Shown here: one piece after another, positions 4,994 to 40,315 of the stretch
Layout: every line of letters begins with the position of its first letter
Numbering within the stretch: the first letter of the stretch is position 1
NCBI GenBank assembly: GCA_041481225.1
Contig: JBGPBL010000003.1
Coordinates: forward strand, 5,116 to 69,115
DNA from: Sulfurifustaceae bacterium
GTDB taxonomy: Bacteria > Pseudomonadota > Gammaproteobacteria > Acidiferrobacterales > Sulfurifustaceae
Reading direction: 5' to 3'
DNA: 64,000 nt
The notes under the pieces: model-generated
What the model saw: the letters and a program-made list of their open reading frames with translations, nothing else
Told to the model about the DNA's origin: nothing
Databases searched by the model: none
Translations under genes and position numbers: made by a program

Positions 4994-5605
4994 ATGACCA
5001 AAACCATTGGCCTGATTCTCGCCGGCGGCCGCTCCACCCGCATGGGTGTCAGCGACAAGGCGTTTATTGCCCTGAAGGGTAAGCTGCTCCTCGCGCACCT
5101 CCTTGACCGTCTCAAGCCCCAAGTGGATGAGGTCGTCGTCAACAGCAACGTTGGCATGGAGCGCTTCCACGAATTTGGCACATCGGTTATTCCCGACCGC
5201 TTGCGCGGCTACCTTGGACCCCTTGCCGGGATTCACGCCGGACTCACGGTCTTTCCCGAGGATTATCTTTTGACGGTGGCTGTTGACCTGCCTTTTATTC
5301 CCCACGATCTGGCGACAAGACTCAAAGCCCAATCCGATGGCTCACATTGTTGTTATGCCACCGATGGAAAAAACCACGCGCTGGCCATCCTGTGGCCACC
5401 GGGCATGGCCGTGGCCGTGGAAAACTTTCTCAAAGAAGGAAAACACAGCATCCGCGATTGGCTCGCCCTGCATGGAAAGCCCGTGCGTTTTCATCCCGCG
5501 CCGGATGCCGACATCCAGTTCAACGTCAATTCGCCGGCGGATCTGGAAAAGGCAGAGATATTTCTCTCCGGAACCCATGGCGCGAGAAATAAAAAAGGGG
5601 GCTAA
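4994..5605 (+). CDS. mobA: molybdenum cofactor guanylyltransferase
   Basis: LILAGGRSTRMG..DK, GPLAGIHAGL, VDLPF, FNVNSPADL. Confidence 0.92.
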   Translation: MTKTIGLILAGGRSTRMGVSDKAFIALKGKLLLAHLLDRLKPQVDEVVVNSNVGMERFHEFGTSVIPDRLRGYLGPLAGIHAGLTVFPEDYLLTVAVDLPFIPHDLATRLKAQSDGSHCCYATDGKNHALAILWPPGMAVAVENFLKEGKHSIRDWLALHGKPVRFHPAPDADIQFNVNSPADLEKAEIFLSGTHGARNKKGG

Positions 5606-5618
5606 GCCCCCTTTTTTT
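5591..5618. terminator. bidirectional intrinsic terminator between convergent mobA and pnp
   Basis: AAAAAA-GGGGGC-TAA-GCCCCC-TTTTTTT. Confidence 0.85.
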
Positions 5619-5639
5619 CTTCCAACGTTTTCTGAAAGC

Positions 5640-7736
5640 TTACACCGGTATTTCTTCTTCCAGCGCCTTCATGGAGAGACGGATACGGCCCTGTTTGTCG
5701 ACTTCCAGTACCTTGACCCGCACCACCTCGCCTTCACGCAGCTTGTCGGCGACGTTCTCCACCCGCTCACGCGAGATCTGTGAGATGTGCACCAGGCCGT
5801 CCTTGCCGGGCATGATGGTGACGAAGGCACCGAAGTCCATGAGCTTGGCGACCTTGCCTTCGTAGATCATCCCCACCTCGACGTCCGCGGTGAGCTGCTG
5901 GACACGCCGGCGTGCTTCCTGGGCCGCGGCGTTGTCGGCGGAGGCAATCTTCACCGTGCCGTCGTCCTCGATATCGATGGTGCATCCGGTCTCCTCACAC
6001 AACGCGCGGATGGTGGCCCCACCCTTGCCGATGACATCGCGGATACGCTCCGGATTGATCTTCATCGTGAGAATACGCGGCGCGTACTCGGAAAGCTCAG
6101 CGCGCGGCGCGGAAATCGCCTTACTCATCTCACCGAGGATGTGCAACCGCCCTTCCTTCGCCTGCTTGAGCGCGACATCCATGATTTCGCGGTTGATGCC
6201 TTCAATCTTGATGTCCATCTGCAGTGCAGTCACGCCACTCGTGGTTCCGGCAACCTTGAAATCCATATCGCCGAGGTGATCTTCATCGCCGATGATATCG
6301 GTCAGCACGGAGAAACGCTTGTCTTCCTTGATGAGGCCCATCGCCACGCCGGCAACCGGCGCCTTGATCGGCACGCCCGCATCCATCAGTGACAGCGAGG
6401 CACCACAAACGCTCGCCATCGAGCTCGAGCCGTTCGATTCCGTGATCTCGGACACCACGCGCAACACATAGGGATAGGTGTCCATGCTCGGCAGCACCGC
6501 AATCATCGCGCGCTTCGCGAGACGACCATGGCCAACCTCGCGCCGCTTCGGACTGCCGACGCGGCCCACTTCACCGACGGAATACGGTGGGAAATTGTAA
6601 TGCAGCATGAACGGATCTTTGCGCGAGCCTTCGAGGGCATCGATAATCTGTGCGTCACGACCCGTGCCCAGCGTGGTCACGACCAGCGCCTGGGTTTCAC
6701 CACGCGTGAACAGCGCCGAGCCATGGGTACGCGGCAATACGCCGGTACGGATGGTGATCGGACGTACGGTGCGCGTGTCGCGTCCGTCGATGCGCGCCTC
6801 ACCGGAAAGAATCTGATCGCGCACGGTGCGGTATTCGATATCGCCGATAATCTTGAGCACCTTCTCCTTCGTGCCCGCGGGCGCGCCTTCGGCAGCGTGT
6901 TTGCCGACCGCCATCTCGCGGATCTCGGCCACGCGGTCCTGGCGTGCTCCCTTCTCTTTAATGCGATAGGCCCCGGCAATGGATGAGCCGAATTCCGTTT
7001 GCAACGTATTCTTGAACGCCGTGTCCTCGGCTGGCGGCTGCCAAGCCCAGGGTTGCACACCGGCATCCTTCACGAGTTCGTTGATGGCCTTGATCGCCGC
7101 CTGCATCTGCTCGTGACCGAACATCACGGCGCCGAGCATGACTTCTTCCGACAACTCCTTCGCTTCGGATTCCACCATCAGCACCGCTTTCTCGGTGCCG
7201 GCGACGACGAGGTCAAGCTGTGAATCGACGAGTTCCTTCTTGCCCGGGTTGAGCAGGTACTTGCCGTCCTTGTAGCCCACGCGCGCCGCGCCGATCGGGC
7301 CGTTGAACGGAGCGCCCGACAGCTTCAACGCCGCGGAGGCGCCGATCATGGAGACGACATCCGGATCGATGTCCGGATCCACCGAGATCACGGTGGTGAT
7401 AATCTGGACTTCGTTGGTGAAACCTTCGGGAAACAGCGGGCGGATGGGACGATCGATCAGGCGGGAGGTAAGAATTTCCTTCTCCGAAGGTCGGCCTTCG
7501 CGCTTGAAGAATCCGCCCGGTATGCGGCCAGCGGCAAAAGTTTTTTCCTGATAATCCACCGTCATCGGGAAGAAATCCTTGCCCGGCATCGGTTCCTTCA
7601 TCGTCACCGCGGTCGCAAGCACGACGGTTTCGCCCATGCTGATCATGCAGGCACCTGAGGCCTGGCGTGCTATTTCGCCGGTTTCGAGTGTGACGGTGTG
7701 ACTGCCGTACTGAAATGATTTCGTGATTTTTGCCAA
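5640..7736 (-). CDS. pnp: polyribonucleotide nucleotidyltransferase (PNPase)
   Basis: [55 protein letters not shown] and S1 domains; TTG start. Confidence 0.98.
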
Positions 7737-8154: not shown

Positions 8155-9072
8155 TCAGGCCTTTTCGGCCAACAGCCGCCGTGGCGCCACGCGGCCATCG
8201 TCCAGGACCTGTCCCATCCCGAGAAAACGGCTGTCGCCCTCATACAATCGCAGCCAGTCGCCCGGGACACCACTATGTTTGGCCGAAACCGCCTGCCCCT
8301 GACGCAGATAATGGGTCGCGAGCGGTGTCAGGTGTACGGCCGGTATATACCCCAGAACGCTGTCCGCCGGCAGTAGCCGGGTTGCCCGCGCTCCGGGATC
8401 CGCCATGGCCTCCAGCGTATCCAGGCGCACCGCCTGATCGACATGGATATCCCCAATAGCCAGGCGGCGCAACTGGGTAACATGGGCCCCGCATCCGAGC
8501 CGCTCACCCAGATCGTACGCCAGACTGCGGATATAAGTGCCCTTGGAGCAGGCGACTTCCAGCGTCAGCTCGTCGCCCTGAAAATCCAGCAAGCGCAACT
8601 CGTGCACCCGCACCTGTCGCGGTTCGCGCTCAACCTCGATCCCGGCACGCGCCAGCTTGTAGAGCGCCTCGCCATTACGCTTGATGGCGGAATACATCGG
8701 CGGCACCTGTTCGATATCACCCTGAAAATGGGTCAGGGCCTGCTCAATTTCGCGCCGGCCGACCGTCACGGGTCGGGTCGCCGTCGCCTCGCCCTCGCTG
8801 TCATAGGTGGTCGTGCTCACACCCAGCCGGAATATCGTCCAATAACGCTTGTCGGCATCGAGCAGAAACTGCGAGAGCTTGGTGGCCTCGCCAAAGCACA
8901 AGGGCAGCAATCCCGTGGCAATGGGATCGAGGCTGCCCGTGTGCCCGGCCTTGCAGGCATTGAGCAGCCGCTTGGCGACCTGCAGTGCCTGGTTCGACGT
9001 AAACCCCACGGGCTTGTCGAGTAGCAGCACGCCGCTTACCGGTGAACAGTTACGGCGCGTACGCACCATCAC
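8155..9072 (-). CDS. truB: tRNA pseudouridine(55) synthase TruB
   Basis: LDKPVG.TSN, KAGHTGSLDPIATGLL, VPPMYSAIK, CSKGTYIRSL; ATGA overlap with rbfA. Confidence 0.97.
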   Translation of the reverse strand: MMVRTRRNCSPVSGVLLLDKPVGFTSNQALQVAKRLLNACKAGHTGSLDPIATGLLPLCFGEATKLSQFLLDADKRYWTIFRLGVSTTTYDSEGEATATRPVTVGRREIEQALTHFQGDIEQVPPMYSAIKRNGEALYKLARAGIEVEREPRQVRVHELRLLDFQGDELTLEVACSKGTYIRSLAYDLGERLGCGAHVTQLRRLAIGDIHVDQAVRLDTLEAMADPGARATRLLPADSVLGYIPAVHLTPLATHYLRQGQAVSAKHSGVPGDWLRLYEGDSRFLGMGQVLDDGRVAPRRLLAEKA

Positions 9073-9437
9073 TCCTTGCCGGGCTTGTCCTGCGCGATGG
9101 CCTTATCAATAAGGCTGTCGATGCGCGCACCACGTTCCACGGATTCGTCGAAAATGAACCGGAGTGCTGGCACCGTGCGCAGCGTAAGGCGTCCCATGAG
9201 AATATGCCGCAGGAAACCCGCGGCTTGGTTGAGTTTTTTGACGGTTTGCTTTGCCTGCGTCACATCCCCCATCAGGGAGAAATAGATTCTGGCGGTAGAA
9301 AAATCGCGCGACACCTCGGCTCCGGTAAGCGTAATCCGGTGTGCCTGCGGGTCGTCCAGTTCGCGCGGAATCAACATGGCAAGCTCGCGCTTGATCAGTT
9401 CCGCCACGCGCTGCGGCCGGTTGGTCTCTTTGTGCAT
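9069..9437 (-). CDS. rbfA: ribosome-binding factor A
   Basis: RPQRVAELI, VSRDFSTARIY, LRTVPALRFIFDES; lies between infB and truB. Confidence 0.96.
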   Translation of the reverse strand: MHKETNRPQRVAELIKRELAMLIPRELDDPQAHRITLTGAEVSRDFSTARIYFSLMGDVTQAKQTVKKLNQAAGFLRHILMGRLTLRTVPALRFIFDESVERGARIDSLIDKAIAQDKPGKE

Positions 9438-9451
9438 GGTTACAAAAAATA

Positions 9452-9527
9452 GACAAGATTTACGGGATTAACAGAGAAAGGCTTAACGGATCCGGGTTTT
9501 AATCCTGCAAATCCCGTTAATCCTGTC
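9452..9527. repeat. imperfect palindromic intergenic element with 9-nt periodic arms (REP-like)
   Basis: Left arm GACAAGATTTACGGGATTAACAG (9452-9474). Right arm AATCCTGCAAATCCCGTTAATCCTGTC (9501-9527); its reverse complement matches the left arm at 19/23. Confidence 0.75.
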
Positions 9528-9540
9528 GCTTTAACAGATC

Positions 9541-11985
<2,445 letters not shown>

Positions 11986-36644: not shown

Positions 36645-37403
36645 TCAATCGGCCGCACGGCAAACCGTCAGGAACTCTTCCGCCTGCAACGACGCCCCGC
36701 CGATCAGACCACCATCGATGTCCGGCTGGGACTGAAGTTCCTTGGCGTTGCTGCCCTTCATGCTGCCGCCATAAAGCACACGCAGTTTATCCGCCACAGA
36801 CTTGTCCTTGGCGGCAATACGTTCACGGATAAAACGATGCACGTCCTGCGCCTGGGCCGGCGTTGCCGTCTTGCCGGTACCAATTGCCCAAACGGGTTCA
36901 TAGGCGATCACCGCGTTCTTGAAACTGGCAACGCCATGCTTATTCAGCACCGCATCGATCTGGCGCGTCACCACCGCTTCGGTCTGGTTGGCTTCGCGCT
37001 CCGCGAGCGTCTCGCCCACACACAAGATGGGAATCAACCCCGCGGCCTGCGCGGCGCCGTATTTCTCGGCCACAAGCGCGTCAGTCTCACCATAATATGT
37101 GCGCCGTTCCGAATGACCGACAATAACATAAGTACAGCCATAGTCCTTGAGCATCGGACCGGATATTTCGCCGGTATAGGCCCCGGACTTGTGCACGCTG
37201 AGATTCTGCCCGCCCCAAGCCACGGCACTGCCGGCCAGCTTTTCTGCCACCAGCGGGATCAGGATAAACGGTGGGCAAATGGCCACTTCCGCCCTGGAAG
37301 CGACACTCACGCCCGTTTTCAGCGCATCGACCAGCGCCGCGGATTCGGCCCGCGACCCGTTCATCTTCCAGTTTCCTGCTACCAGCGGCCGGCGCTTGCC
37401 CAT
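36645..37403 (-). CDS. tpiA: triosephosphate isomerase
   Basis: AGNWKMNG, GAYTGEIS, VGHSERR, AYEPVWAIGTG, LYGGS, LIGGASL. Start moved to ATG 37403. Confidence 0.98.
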   Translation of the reverse strand: MGKRRPLVAGNWKMNGSRAESAALVDALKTGVSVASRAEVAICPPFILIPLVAEKLAGSAVAWGGQNLSVHKSGAYTGEISGPMLKDYGCTYVIVGHSERRTYYGETDALVAEKYGAAQAAGLIPILCVGETLAEREANQTEAVVTRQIDAVLNKHGVASFKNAVIAYEPVWAIGTGKTATPAQAQDVHRFIRERIAAKDKSVADKLRVLYGGSMKGSNAKELQSQPDIDGGLIGGASLQAEEFLTVCRAAD

Positions 37404-37492
37404 CTGTCCTCCCGGATTCTCTTTAAATCTGCTGAAAAACGGGCGCGATGTTACCGGGCACGGCCCAATAATGCAATTTCTGGGGATTATTT

Positions 37493-37512
37493 CGGCGCAA
37501 AGGGCGCAAAGA
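37493..37512. repeat. 9-nt periodic repeat arm (left)
   Basis: CGG-CGCAAAGGG-CGCAAAGA; an inverted near-copy lies at 38929-38947. Confidence 0.55.
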
Positions 37513-37533
37513 GACTCGAAGTACAACCTCCTC

Positions 37534-37678
37534 TAGAACAATCCAGGCCTCACCGAGGTAATACTTCCCGCAACGCGGCCCGGACATCGTCATCGAGCAG
37601 GGAGACCTGGCGGCTCAGGGTGTTGGCGGTGAGGAAATGCGCTCCAGCGCCGATATAGGCGCGTCGGCAAATCGGCAT
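37534..37678 (-). pseudogene. decayed N-terminal fragment of a REP-associated tyrosine transposase (RAYT/TnpA-REP, HUH family)
   Basis: 37678-37550 encodes MPICRRAYIGAGAHFLTANTLSRQVSLLDDDVRAALREVLPR*, resembling the RAYT N-terminus (M.NYRR...GG.YFFTVNT..RQ..L.D..VR.ALRE). A frameshifted EAWIVL (37551-37534) resembles the DAWVVL that precedes PDHLH; the HUH motif itself is missing. Confidence 0.7.
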
Positions 37679-37697
37679 ACGGCGATTATGTTTGATC

Positions 37698-37718
37698 GGC
37701 GCGTGGTACGCGCCCAAC
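37698..37718 (-). repeat. REP-like hairpin with GTAG-like foot
   Basis: Minus strand GTTG-GGCGCG-TACCA-CGCGCC, about 20 nt upstream of the RAYT-remnant ATG. Confidence 0.55.
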
Positions 37719-37731
37719 GCTTGCCACAGGC

Positions 37732-38799
37732 TCAGGTGTGAGTGGTGTCCGCGTGAAGTACCGAGACATGATTGCGCCCGGATTTCTTCGAGAGGTACAG
37801 CGCCTTGTCGGCGCGTCCGACGAAGTCGTCGTGACTCTCGCCCGGGTGGTAAGCAGCGACGCCGATCGACACCGTCACGCGACCGACGGTCTCGCCCGTG
37901 TCAACGCGCTTCAGCCGGCTGCGTTCGATAGCGGCGCGTAGCACTTCGGCCACGCGCTCGGCGTTGGCGAGCGGCGTTTCGGGCAGCAACACCGCAAACT
38001 CCTCGCCACCCATGCGCGCGACCGTGTCCTTGCCCTTGATGTTTGACGACAGCAGCGTGCCCACCGAGCGGATCACCTTGTCGCCGATGAGGTGGCCATA
38101 GGTATCGTTGACGTTCTTAAAGTGGTCGATGTCGACCAACAGCAGGGAAAGCGTCGTGGCCGGATCCTTGGCGTGATCGCAAGCCTCCTGCAACGCCGCC
38201 TCGAAGGCGCGCCGGTTCTTGAGACCAGTGAGTGCGTCGATGCTCACCTGCTGGCGGGTATGTTCAAGCTCGTCACGCAGCGTCTCAATCTCGCGGCGCG
38301 TGTCGTCCAGCATCTGTTTCAGCAGCTGGCCGTTGTGGGCGATGTCGCGTGTTTCGCCCACCACCTCGCCAAGAATGCGGCGCATCTCTTCGAGCGACGG
38401 TCCGCGCTCAAGATGAGCAGACTTGGCAGCGAGCGATTCTGAAGACCGCTCGGCCTGCGTCTTGGCCTGATTGACGCCGGTGATGGTTTCCGTCACCAGC
38501 GTGCGCAGCTCGCTGCGAATGTTCTCAAGTTGGTGCTTGTTATCGTCCCAAATGAAGCGCCGGTAAAGATCGTGCGCCGCCTCGGCGCTGAAGCGCCCGC
38601 CGGCGAGCACGTTGTCGAGTGCCTCCCGGAGTGCCGCGTTGCGGCCAGCCACGTAGTCGTAGCAGAGGGCGAAGTTGACCGGGTTCGGTGCCATCTTGTG
38701 GCTGCCCAGAAAGGCGAGCGCCAGGCGCAGGTATTCGGATGCCTGTTCCGGGTCTTCTGCGTACGGGTGGCGATCCGTGTTAGAAGGTGTTGTGGCCAT
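37732..38799 (-). CDS. diguanylate cyclase (GGDEF), VdcA-like cytoplasmic architecture
   Basis: DALTGLKNRR, DIDHFKNVNDTYGHLIGD, RMGGEEF, VTVSIGVA, ADKALYLSK.SGRN; N-terminal PNPVNFALCYDYV and coiled coil. Confidence 0.93.
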   Translation of the reverse strand: MATTPSNTDRHPYAEDPEQASEYLRLALAFLGSHKMAPNPVNFALCYDYVAGRNAALREALDNVLAGGRFSAEAAHDLYRRFIWDDNKHQLENIRSELRTLVTETITGVNQAKTQAERSSESLAAKSAHLERGPSLEEMRRILGEVVGETRDIAHNGQLLKQMLDDTRREIETLRDELEHTRQQVSIDALTGLKNRRAFEAALQEACDHAKDPATTLSLLLVDIDHFKNVNDTYGHLIGDKVIRSVGTLLSSNIKGKDTVARMGGEEFAVLLPETPLANAERVAEVLRAAIERSRLKRVDTGETVGRVTVSIGVAAYHPGESHDDFVGRADKALYLSKKSGRNHVSVLHADTTHT

Positions 38800-38881
38800 C
38801 TGTCACTTTATGTTTATTGGCCATTGCCTGGGCTAGTGGAACAAGTTTAGCTTTATTTGACAGAAATATGCCAGAGCAAGC

Positions 38882-38906
38882 GTAGGGCGCATGCCACTCA
38901 TCCGAC
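38882..38906 (+). repeat. degenerate GTAG-type REP-like sequence
   Basis: GTAG-GGCGCA-TGCCACTCATCCGAC; shares GT(A/T)GGGCGC with 37698-37718, but its hairpin is poor. Confidence 0.35.
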
Positions 38907-38928
38907 ATACATGCCACACAGCGTCTAT

Positions 38929-38947
38929 GTCTTTGCGCCTTCGCGGT
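38929..38947. repeat. 9-nt periodic repeat arm (right)
   Basis: GTCTTTGCGCCTTCGCGGT; reverse complement CGCGAAG-GCGCAAAGA vs left arm CGCAAAGGGCGCAAAGA (15/17). Confidence 0.5.
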
Positions 38948-38953
38948 ACCATT

Positions 38954-40315
38954 CTATGCTGCGGCTTCTTCCGCCGCGCGCTGGACGGTATCCGCCAAAA
39001 ATTGGGTCAGGCGTTGCACCTGTCCCCTATCGCGTCCCTCGACCATCACGCGGATCAACGACTCCGTGCCCGAGGCACGCAATACCACCCGCCCCTTGTC
39101 GGCCAATTCGGCTTCCACTTCCTTGATCGCCTGCTGCACCCGGTGCGATTCCTTGACGTCGAAGCGCCGCTTCATGCGCACGTTGATCATGGTCTGGGGA
39201 TAGGTCTCCATGCCCGACTTGATCTCCTTCAGGGATTTACCAGACGCGACCATGGCCACCAAGACTTGCAGCGCCGCGATAATGCCGTCACCGGTGGTGC
39301 TGCGATCGAGGCAAATAATATGCCCCGATGTCTCGCCGCCCAGCTCCCAGCCGTGTTCACTCAACATGCCAAGCACGTAACGGTCGCCCACCGCCGCGCG
39401 CCGGAAGGGAATACCTTGCGCCATGCAGGCCTGCTCCAAACCGAGGTTGCTCATCAGCGTCCCGACCACACCGCCGTGCATGCGGCCGTTGCGCTTGCGC
39501 TCCTGCGCAATGATAAAAAGAATCTGATCGCCGTCAATGATCTCGCCACTGGCATCCACCATGAGCACGCGGTCGCCGTCGCCGTCGAGCGCGATGCCAA
39601 GATCGGCGCCCTTTTCCAGAACCGTCTTGCGCAACAACTCGGGGTGCGTCGAACCGCACTCACGATTGATATTGAAACCGTCGGGTTCGTTGGCGATAGC
39701 GATAACATTCGCGCCCAGCTCGCTGAACACGAGCGGCGCGACGCTGTAGGCCGCACCATTGGAGCAGTCGACGACGATCGTCAGCCCTTCCAGGCCGAGC
39801 TTATGGGGAAATGTACTTTTACAGAATTCAATATAACGTCCACCGGCGTCGTCATAGCGCTTGGCCTTGCCGAGCGAGGCGGCATCCGCCATGGTCAGCG
39901 GCTGCTGCATCATCTCTTCGATGGCCAACTCGACATCGTCCGGCAGCTTGGTGCCCTCGGAGGAAAAGAACTTGATGCCATTGTCTTCGTAGGGATTGTG
40001 CGAAGCGCTGATCACGATACCGGCGCGGGCACGCGCCGTGCGCGTGAGGTACGCAATCGCGGGAGTCGGCATCGGCCCGAGCAGGCGGATGTCCACGCCC
40101 GCGGCCGAGAGCCCGGCTTCGAGCGCGGACTCAAGCAAATAGCCGGAGATACGCGTGTCCTTGCCGATAAGTATCTTGGCGTGATCGCTCGTGCCATGAC
40201 CCAATACACGACCGGCGGCCCAACCCAGCTTCACCACGGTTTCGGGGGTAATGGGCTCTTCGCCCACCTTGCCGCGAATACCGTCTGTTCCGAAAAACCG
40301 CCTTTTTTTACTCAT
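38954..40315 (-). CDS. glmM: phosphoglucosamine mutase
   Basis: [61 protein letters not shown]. Start moved to ATG 40315. Confidence 0.97.

Follow-up and report, generated by a model that had tools for sequence, protein, structure and literature searches.

On balance, the DNA between glmM and tpiA in the 64-kb stretch analysed here (the window) appears to be the product of nested insertions into palindrome centres, at a gap in which gene content turns over frequently. A gene for a GGDEF diguanylate cyclase, an enzyme type that makes c-di-GMP, occupies the gap together with the remnant of a RAYT (REP-associated tyrosine transposase) gene. The sequence-only reading had taken this arrangement for nested repeat-mediated capture; an insertion of the GGDEF gene, bracketed by two nested inverted pairs, stood up in the comparison with relatives, but its capture or mobilisation by the repeats did not. 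The slot is delimited by the following features:

36645..37403, minus strand: tpiA (triosephosphate isomerase), downstream flank of the slot (Pfam TIM, 2e-98)
37448..37476, minus strand: tpiA promoter-like element TTGCAT-17 nt-TAACAT (sequence comparison)
38954..40315, minus strand: glmM (phosphoglucosamine mutase), upstream flank of the slot (four PGM_PMM Pfam domains)

A gap of less than 300 bp (62-263 bp) separates glmM and tpiA in about 30 of the 45 relatives for which both genes were located on the fetched stretch, in agreement with the earlier statement that the two genes are neighbours. GlmM is 96-97% identical at the amino acid level to its counterparts in L081, L173 and L175, and about 80% identical to those of Sulfuricaulis-like MAGs. 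The shortest empty gaps (approximately 84 bp; L004, L017 and L031) contain little beyond the tpiA promoter-like element, which is kept in all close relatives and scores under the threshold of a consensus scan; judged by its conservation, TTGCAT-17 nt-TAACAT is a putative tpiA promoter. In other relatives the gap is occupied by a DUF2846/OMP-like gene (L002, L007, L008, L011 and L020), by an ankyrin gene (L010, L015 and L016) or, in L005, by a block exceeding 7 kb that includes dockerin and M64 peptidase genes; L027 has a GAF-LuxR gene there, together with an IS110 and an intact REPtron, that is, a RAYT gene flanked by GTAG-tagged REP hairpins. Across about 35 related genomes the gap contents are of at least five kinds, and they are scattered over the GlmM+FolP tree.

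In the window, the occupant of the gap is the cyclase gene, accompanied by a conserved upstream box:

37732..38799, minus strand: GGDEF diguanylate cyclase gene, 355 aa (Pfam GGDEF, colinear with homologues)
38843..38851, minus strand: GCTAAACTT box, approximately 45-50 nt upstream of the GGDEF ATG (upstream-region alignment)

The identification of this gene from sequence alone was confirmed by a Pfam GGDEF match across the full domain (PF00990, 2.4e-47; TIGR00254, 5.6e-50). The alignment shows an intact GGEEF active-site motif, of the GG(D/E)EF type, and at the I-site KGKD (KxxD) instead of RxxD in all homologues; the N-terminal part of the protein is a domain of roughly 170 aa. Four close lineages (the window, L081, L173 and L175) carry the gene in the glmM-tpiA slot, with 92-94% amino acid identity. 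The empty gaps and the unrelated occupants belong to more distant relatives. A dN/dS of 0.15 against L081, together with dS, GC and GC3 values resembling those of neighbour genes, shows the pattern of a gene under purifying selection that has been vertically inherited and whose function has been preserved in at least four lineages. Homologues of 77-80% identity are located at other loci, and three of the four examined adjoin an aldo-keto reductase gene (L082, L084 and L087; the fourth, L085, lies elsewhere); a 72% homologue was among the matches listed in a scan of metagenome contigs with the GGDEF protein. By this distribution, the presence of the gene between glmM and tpiA reflects a lineage-specific insertion; its other location in relatives means that it either moved or was acquired. 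The GCTAAACTT box is common to the window and the reductase-linked homologues L084 and L087, so the gene appears to have come with its own promoter, of which the box is likely the -10 region. On both sides of the gene, homology to the glutaredoxin/aldo-keto reductase locus ends approximately 10-40 nt from the ends of the inner repeats described below. For a calibration of divergence by housekeeping genes, no genes besides GGDEF were found to be shared between the reductase-linked contigs and the window.

Two REP copies form the inner inverted repeat:

37688..37724, minus strand: inner arm downstream of GGDEF, REP GTTG-GGCGCGT-ACC-ACGCGCC (37698-37718) with a GCAAGC extension
38876..38912, plus strand: inner arm upstream of GGDEF, degenerate GTAG-type REP GCAAGC-GTAG-GGCGCATGCCAC...

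The GT(T/A)G-GGCGC motifs that had been noticed around the gene, GTTGGGCGC (37710-37718, minus strand) and GTAGGGCGC (38882-38890, plus strand), are present, and proved to be the core of this longer, 37-nt repeat (27 of 37 positions match, and 20 of 24 in the core). Shuffling both spacers 300 times never produced its equal, and a chance origin was rejected on that count. The copy at 37698-37718 combines a GTAG-type tag with a short palindrome (7-bp stem, -9.6 kcal/mol as DNA). In the window the stem of the upstream copy, GTAG-GGCGCATGCC..., is gone, and the copy folds no better there than shuffled sequence; in L173 the stem persists. An intact GGCGCGT-NNC-ACGCGCC hairpin stands on the downstream side of GGDEF in the window and L175 and on its upstream side in L173. 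The GTAG ends of the pair face the GGDEF gene across a spacer of 1151 nt. As in a REPIN, the two copies are an inverted pair of one family, but the spacer is of this length and the sequence searched contained no other copies, either in the 64-kb window or, except at the slot, in approximately 25 kb from sister lineages. One REP copy was found at another locus in the close relative L176.

A significant inverted REP pair around exactly one gene and its promoter has the look of a mobilisable unit. The inverted REPs could be ends recognised by the neighbouring RAYT, with GGDEF moved into the glmM-tpiA gap, promoter included, as the spacer of an oversized REPIN-like unit by IS200/IS605-style single-strand excision and integration. 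This reading, which we regard as unlikely, would also predict the homology boundaries close to the REP ends, and it would account for the different locus of the gene in relatives and for the RAYT remnant immediately beside the pair. Against it, the 77-80% homologues at other loci have neither repeat type at their flanks, whereas the sequence-only reading had named GGDEF with the same flanks elsewhere as one possible support, and no second GGDEF copy with these repeat flanks was found. The unit lies at the same locus in all four lineages that carry it, and contigs of close strains from four metagenome runs yielded no empty-site variant in which glmM is joined to tpiA without GGDEF. The sequence is present in sediment and wetland metagenomes (runs X1-X7). 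With GTAG ends that face it, GGDEF falls outside the canonical GTAG-REP...RAYT...REP-CTAC unit of L027. The lack of any other REP copy in the 64-kb window also speaks against capture, as do the published properties of these systems: REPIN spacers measure tens of bp, and RAYTs are single-copy and not self-mobilising (PMC3337134, PMC3733652). As the sole mechanism, homologous recombination that integrates a circle at a REP was rejected, since we infer that it would give direct, not inverted, flanking repeats.

The RAYT sequence adjoins the tpiA-side REP, which lies 20 nt upstream of its frame:

37553..37678, minus strand: RAYT N-terminal remnant, 42 codons, stop at 37550-37552 (transitive homology)
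37541..37718, minus strand: REP + RAYT-5' module, approximately 180-185 nt, homologous to modules in L176 (after pnp) and L175

Support for the remnant, named in the earlier reading, is transitive. Its sole NCBIfam match is REP_Tyr_transpos at E = 0.03, far below cut-off and covering model positions 3-38 of 146; its phmmer matches P0124-P0127 (E = 6e-6 to 8e-4) in turn match REP_Tyr_transpos at 1e-7 to 2e-13. Identity to the fragments P0124-P0127 and to the intact RAYT of L027 (L027:10844-11377) is 34-57%, and in L027 the placement and orientation of the GTAG REPs with respect to the RAYT gene match those in the window. In the window the frame ends with a stop at codon 43, short of the HUH position, and by this reading the window RAYT is a dead fossil. 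A frameshifted EAWIVL continuation was not adopted; homology to L176 and L175 gives a different frame there, VRPGLF*, and this homology ends near 37541. A word search for full-length RAYTs with a remnant-like N-terminus (query composed of the remnant and the L027 tail, with region 1-42 scored) yielded no candidates, the remnant being too decayed.

Homology between the modules extends from the GTWG tetranucleotide to near GGTGAGGC, spanning the REP and the first ~47 RAYT codons. In L176 the module stands after pnp, without GGDEF, and its REP reads GTAG-GGCGCGT-ATC-ACGCGCC; the L176 PNPase is 92.6% identical to that of the window, whose own pnp is followed by no module. The occurrence of the module at different loci in close relatives implies that the REP system was mobile not long ago, which favours capture of the cyclase gene to that extent, but in L176 REP and RAYT are found by themselves, which argues against mobilisation of GGDEF by the repeats. 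The REP + RAYT-5' module may be a previously unrecognised non-autonomous REPtron derivative.

The whole arrangement is enclosed by a second inverted pair:

37496..37512, no strand assigned: outer arm, tpiA side, CGCAAAGGGCGCAAAGA = CGCAAAG-GG-CGCAAAGA (sequence)
38930..38945, no strand assigned: outer arm, glmM side, minus strand reading CGCGAAG-G-CGCAAAGA (half of a palindromic element with CGCAAAG-unit arms)

Both sequences and coordinates of this pair, reported earlier as a 15/17 match, were reproduced. The glmM-side arm reads CGCGAAGGCGCAAAGA on the other strand and is the inverted mate of CGCAAAGGGCGCAAAGA, with 15 matches, 1 mismatch and one 1-nt gap around a 10-nt exact core, GGCGCAAAGA; the tpiA-side arm lies 19 nt upstream of the -35 box of the tpiA promoter-like element. 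When the two outer spacer parts were dinucleotide-shuffled 1000 times, 26 shuffles reached the local-alignment score of 12, and the 10-mer GGCGCAAAGA was not enriched in the 64-kb window. Taken alone, the outer arms exceed chance only modestly, and a chance origin, not excluded from the window alone, was rejected by comparison with relatives: arms of this kind recur at both positions in L003, L006 and L014, which shows the pair to be real.

CGCAAAG-type arms stand directly after the glmM stop in L003, L006, L014, L081 and L173. In the first three, the glmM-tpiA site holds a palindromic element with approximately 20-135 bp of non-coding DNA between the arms, and members of the same family occur at unrelated loci (L004:177-276, L031:2804-2901, L014:12964 and L078:3039). 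Complete triple-unit elements were found in L003, L004, L031, L006 and L014, and single arms in L014 and L078. The elements measure about 105-125 bp (roughly 110), fold at -37 to -66 kcal/mol, and have arms in which CGCAAAG units repeat in tandem every 8-9 nt; the unit varies between genomes and agrees between both arms of one element (CGCCAAG on both in L006). Inverted arms built of tandem 7-9-nt units and dispersed as a family in relatives characterise these periodic-arm palindromes, and by comparison with them the window's outer arms are two halves of one dispersed element of ~110 bp; in the window the halves lie approximately 1.4 kb apart and enclose genes. Orthology of the L003, L006 and L014 elements to the window arms is only partly supported, since the motif AAATAATC beside the tpiA-side arm is common to the window and L003 and absent in L006 and L014; L081 has AAATAAAC at this position.

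These elements bear on two expectations of the sequence-only reading. An empty site with the arms joined as one hairpin was expected under capture and does occur, in L003, L006 and L014, but it fits a pre-existing palindrome at least as well as an excision. Abundant, randomly placed arms were expected if capture was wrong, and this is what was seen in part, the outer-arm family being dispersed at unrelated loci. That the palindromes are gene-free in relatives, and that the unrelated genes in the slot of other relatives lack CGCAAAG-type arms, argues against mobilisation of GGDEF by the repeats.

The outer arms bracket both the RAYT remnant and GGDEF, and the same arms form a family of dispersed short elements in relatives. 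This is the configuration of a TIRtron-like composite, in which the CGCAAAG arms would be terminal inverted repeats, GGDEF a passenger, and the short palindromes of relatives internally deleted non-autonomous derivatives; RAYT-like genes with TIRs from moderately abundant repeat families have been reported (PMC3733652). We consider such a composite quite improbable here. The window RAYT has its own GTWG-tagged REP, the less-decayed L176 copy and the intact L027 RAYT are flanked by GTAG REPs and not by CGCAAAG arms, and no RAYT was seen between CGCAAAG arms in the relatives examined. The L003 slot element has a small central GGCGC-N3-GCGCC hairpin that it shares with the other-locus copies in L004 and L031, which makes it an ordinary member of the palindrome family and not a fresh deletion product.

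Retention of the repeats forms a mosaic among the four GGDEF lineages: L175 lacks both outer arms, L173 the downstream REP and the window the upstream hairpin, and SNPs are concentrated in the spacer. This comparison shows the repeats eroding differently in each lineage, independently of the GGDEF gene. The same decay bears on a role in the host, with the repeats selected as terminators or insulators between glmM, the cyclase gene and tpiA, or as mRNA-stabilising hairpins. REPs and similar hairpins can be attenuators or mRNA stabilisers (PMC3733652), the elements are placed exactly at gene boundaries, and the palindrome arms of relatives stay complementary despite differing unit sequence. Among four lineages with 96-97% identity in the flanking proteins, fast and differing erosion makes selection for such a function very improbable, as does the fold of the upstream REP; a promoter and terminator consensus scan of the spacers gave nothing useful, with no T-tracts and no predicted terminator.

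Layered insertions, a vertically kept gene, a dead RAYT and eroding repeats together lead us to regard the repeats, with somewhat better than even confidence, as scars of selfish elements at a permissive site and not as demonstrated ends of a gene-carrying unit. In the succession that we infer for nested insertion, the glmM-tpiA spacer of these Acidiferrobacterales (Sulfuricaulis-like sulfur oxidisers) would repeatedly gain and lose DNA, with the CGCAAAG palindrome as one resident. A REP/RAYT unit, a REPtron, would have come to sit inside the palindrome, and the cyclase gene, relocated or acquired from the locus beside an aldo-keto reductase gene that it occupies in related species, would have come to lie with its own promoter between inverted REPs, giving a tail-to-tail REP dimer with a 1.15-kb spacer. 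Palindrome or hairpin centres would be preferred landing sites in this succession. All layers were probably already in place in the common ancestor of the four GGDEF lineages. REP dimers have been described nested in larger palindromes, and dimers with the GTAG ends inside (TT) have variable spacers, with DNA inserted between the partners (PMC3733652); REPs also serve as insertion targets of ISPpu9 (PMC8450116).

If nested insertion is the right account, the locus offers a clean example of a core-gene junction acting as a slot for accessory genes, in which REPs, a dead RAYT and periodic-arm palindromes pile up inside one another, and of a regulatory enzyme gene that was relocated and then kept by selection while the repeats around it decayed. 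It also cautions that inverted repeats around a gene are not proof of a mobile cargo unit. If capture were true instead, RAYT/REP activity would extend from short non-coding hairpins to genes, and systems regarded as domesticated and cargo-free could occasionally move host genes, which bears on the question of how RAYTs benefit their hosts.

Variable intergenic hotspots between conserved core genes are known, for example the integration hotspots of genomic islets. Like these, the glmM-tpiA core-gene junction holds differing contents in related genomes; unlike these, it has no integrase or tRNA target, and its inserts are, except in L005 and L027, single genes of 0.7-1.5 kb. Known cargo units bounded by MITEs or IS include integron mobilisation units, composite transposons and IS200/IS605 elements with passengers. 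The window resembles them in that a gene is bracketed by small inverted repeats beside a transposase-family gene, but it differs in having no target-site duplication or intact transposase at the locus and no second copy in the sequence searched, and repeats occur without the gene and the gene without repeats, with no sign of joint movement. As in the known REPtrons and GTAG-tagged REP dimers (Nunvar 2010; Ton-Hoang 2012; Di Nocera et al. 2013, PMC3733652; Bertels and Rainey on REPIN/RAYT systems, PMC3116915, PMC3337134), a REP with a GT(A/T)G tetranucleotide and a short GC-rich hairpin stands 20 nt upstream of the RAYT frame and has an inverted partner; unlike in these, the RAYT is a 42-codon fossil and no dispersed REP population was seen within the 64 kb. 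The spacers of described REP dimers are mostly 20-100 bp, whereas that of the window measures 1.15 kb and contains a complete, expressed-looking host gene; in keeping with the TT dimers of PMC3733652, the GTAG ends of the pair point inward and foreign DNA lies between the partners.

The window appears to belong to a Sulfuricaulis-like member of the Acidiferrobacterales, as placed by GlmM, which is 79-82% identical to that of Sulfuricaulis and 'Muproteobacteria' MAGs. The region, with all its genes on the minus strand, has the order ftsH, folP, glmM, GGDEF gene, RAYT-like frame (RAYT, REP-associated tyrosine transposase), tpiA, secG, tRNA and nuoA, with the following features around the glmM-tpiA junction:

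36645-37403, minus strand, tpiA
37553-37678, minus strand, short RAYT-like frame
37732-38799, minus strand, GGDEF gene
38954-40315, minus strand, glmM

Eighty glmM loci of relatives were fetched and tpiA was then located, both genes being present on the fetched stretch in 45. The glmM-tpiA gap was shorter than 300 bp (62-263 bp) in about 30 of these 45, and the shortest gaps (83-85 bp; L004, L017 and L031) contained little beyond a conserved promoter-like element, TTGCAT-17-TAACAT, located at 37448-37476 in the window. This element and the GCGCCCGTTTTTC motif after it were found at the matching position, very strongly conserved 5' of tpiA, in about 25 relatives; the element was kept across Acidiferrobacterales-like genomes even where all DNA upstream differed. 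Larger gaps held a gene of approximately 360-375 aa with a DUF2846 match and an outer-membrane-like C-terminus (L002, L007, L008, L011 and L020, approximately 8356-9490; the product is described as a secreted protein), a gene for a 194-aa ankyrin-repeat protein (L010, L015 and L016, approximately 8356-8940), more than 7 kb with dockerin/TSP3 proteins and an M64 peptidase (L005, 8350-15350), or, in the more distant relative L027 (8350-13600), a GAF-LuxR gene, an intact RAYT with REPs and an IS110 transposase. No GGDEF gene was found in the gap among these fetched relatives. The gap contents were scattered over the GlmM+FolP tree and differed between sister taxa, which argues that the junction is a high-turnover slot.

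The outer inverted arms reported by the sequence-only reading (37496-37512 on the tpiA side and 38930-38945 on the glmM side) were confirmed, with 15/17 matching positions, one gap and a 10-nt exact core. On their own they constitute weak evidence; the gapped match was reached in 26 of 1,000 shuffles of the outer spacer parts, and the 10-mer core was not enriched in the window over shuffles. The same inverted-arm architecture recurred in L003, L006 and L014, where the arms lie directly after the glmM stop codon and just before the tpiA promoter and the DNA between them, all non-coding, measures only about 20-135 bp. The arm units were tandem with an 8-9-nt period (CGCAAAG; CGCCAAG in L006; CGCAGAG and other variants in L014), and AAATAATC beside the tpiA-side arm was common to L003 and the window, its counterpart in L081 (a lineage that also carries the GGDEF gene) being AAATAAAC. 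L004 and L031 have complete elements at loci unrelated to this junction, each made of TCACCGCAAAGACGCAAAGGACGCAAAGAA, a loop carrying a small GGCGC-N3-GCGCC hairpin and the inverse arm, and L014 and L078 have single arms at other loci. Given these same-site elements and copies elsewhere, the outer arms of the window are the opposite halves of one element from a dispersed family of palindromes.

Palindromic elements in relatives
L004, 172-281
L031, 2799-2906
L003, 8362-8486
L006, 8366-8540
L014, 8355-8450

These elements measured approximately 105-175 bp, each arm consisting of three tandem CGCAAAG-type units at the same period, with a small central GGCGC-N3-GCGCC hairpin in L003, L004 and L031. 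The unit sequence varied by genome (CGCCAAG also in L078), the two arms of one element remaining complementary. Other elements in the window had the outer-arm architecture with unlike sequence, for example 9452-9527, a palindrome with 9-nt-periodic arms (GACAAGATTTACGGGATTAACAG ... CTGCAAATCCCGTTAATCCTGTC) and a fold as DNA of -12.7 kcal/mol (z = -2.6).

The inner motifs, also confirmed, lie at the core of a longer inverted repeat, the longest in the region, 37688-37724 versus 38876-38912 (27/37 matches, 20/24 in the core), which was equalled in 0 of 300 shuffles of the two spacers (best shuffles 17/24 and 24/37). The downstream copy is a REP comprising GTTG and the perfect hairpin GGCGCGT-ACC-ACGCGCC; no further copies of this REP were found in the 64-kb window. 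The RAYT-like frame is a probable RAYT remnant of 42 codons, the sole family match of which was NCBIfam REP_Tyr_transpos (E = 0.03, model positions 3-38 of 146), and a phmmer search with it against 1.8 billion representatives retrieved short RAYT N-termini (P0124-P0127) that match this family at 1e-7 to 2e-13. The canonical arrangement is seen in L027, where a GTAG-initial REP stands before an intact RAYT of 177 aa (Pfam Y1_Tnp) and inverted REPs stand after it, the GTAG ends being outside; the downstream REP of the window is placed and oriented with respect to the RAYT remnant exactly as in L027. Because the upstream copy is inverted, both GTAG ends point toward the GGDEF gene.

The cyclase gene, an insertion at this junction, encodes a full-length GGDEF protein that is colinear with its homologues and has an intact GGEEF, and KGKD at the usual position of the RxxD inhibitory site. 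KGKD replaced the RxxD allosteric inhibition site in all homologues (window and L081-L089), which also had in common a conserved N-terminal domain of approximately 170 aa with no counterpart in Pfam and, after it, a coiled-coil-like linker. Homologues with 92-94% identity were found in three more lineages (L081, L173 and L175), all with the order glmM-GGDEF-tpiA and with GlmM 96-97% identical among the four. Compared with its L081 counterpart, the gene of the window had a dN/dS of 0.15 and a dS of 0.23 (0.25-0.51 for its neighbours), and its GC and GC3 were similar to those of the neighbours; it has been inherited vertically with them and is under purifying selection. Homologues with 77-80% identity were located at other loci, adjoining an aldo-keto reductase gene on three independent contigs (L087, with the order glutaredoxin, GGDEF, reductase; L084, likewise with an ATPase gene inserted; and L082) and lying in another, different context in L085; neither REP nor outer arms were found at the flanks of these four. 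Homology to the reductase-linked locus extended from a conserved GCTAAACTT box about 50 nt 5' of the ATG (upstream limit possibly about -90) to the stop codon and, as it reaches past the ATG to this box, the gene probably came with its own putative promoter region.

The sequence-only reading proposed that the nested repeats had captured and mobilised this gene. The repeats do bracket it exactly and the REP ends come to about 10-40 nt from where homology stops, both of which speak for this idea, but the gene is not part of the canonical RAYT unit, and what capture specifically predicts was not found (same flanks at other loci, precise excision, activity), making capture improbable. A circle that simply recombined into a REP is likewise unlikely as the sole route, because direct flanking repeats would be expected and inverted ones were found.

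The repeats have decayed, and the four lineages retain different subsets of them.

Repeat retention at the junction
Window: glmM-side arm kept; upstream REP stem lost; downstream REP intact; remnant 42 codons; tpiA-side arm kept
L081: glmM-side arm kept; upstream REP degenerate; downstream REP nearly intact; RAYT remnant gone; tpiA-side arm degenerate
L173: glmM-side arm kept; upstream REP a perfect hairpin; downstream REP, remnant and tpiA-side arm absent
L175: both outer arms lost; upstream REP degenerate; downstream REP intact; remnant degenerate

At the position of the RAYT remnant, L081 has a different REP (GTAGGGCGCAATAGC..., 6146-6175), of the form GTAG-GGCGCAATAG-CGCTGC-CTATTGCGCC (10-bp stem, z = -2.95), which makes with the GGCGCGT-type REP a doublet of unlike partners (heterodimer). 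Of the 13 SNPs counted across 6.6 kb in the population of the window, 5 fell in a 43-nt stretch between remnant and arm. Metagenome contigs from four runs had an unchanged region structure, and in none of these runs did a contig join glmM to tpiA with the cyclase gene missing.

The least decayed relative of the remnant, P0124 on contig L176, has a 12-residue string (LLDDDVRAALRE) in common with it. Its module is not at glmM-tpiA; it follows the terminator of pnp in a close relative (PNPase 92.6% identical to that of the window) and comprises GTAG-GGCGCGT-ATC-ACGCGCC, about 20 nt, 47 RAYT codons and an L027-type REP, with homology to the window and L175 from exactly GTWG to ...GGTGAGGC:

L176, 1350-1560, REP + RAYT-5' module of approximately 185 nt (compared: window 37541-37718, 5560-5650)

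The module was absent after the window's own pnp. It follows that the movement of this REP system, or its decay in situ, did not depend on the cyclase gene. In L027 a REP + RAYT-5' piece is duplicated (10336-10417 versus 10756-10907), and RAYT N-termini cut off after 45-58 aa occur repeatedly among library proteins (P0124-P0127). The module may represent a recurrent non-autonomous fragment of a REPtron (a RAYT gene flanked by GTAG-tagged REP hairpins).

The history we favour, with some reservation, is a series of insertions, one inside another, at a junction that tolerates them, after which the selfish parts decayed and the gene was retained. A palindromic element would have occupied the glmM-tpiA junction, a REP/RAYT unit would have entered this element, and the cyclase gene would have entered the spacer of the inverted REP pair, decay of the selfish parts following while the cyclase gene was kept; we infer this order, together with a preference for palindrome centres. 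IS elements are, according to a passage in PMC8450116, known to insert into REPs. By the nomenclature of Di Nocera et al. (PMC3733652), the inner pair is a tail-to-tail (TT) dimer, and the same source reports that the spacers of TT dimers vary, that DNA can be inserted between REP dimer partners, that some RAYT-like genes have long TIRs at their flanks instead of REPs, and that in some species REP dimers lie inside larger palindromes.
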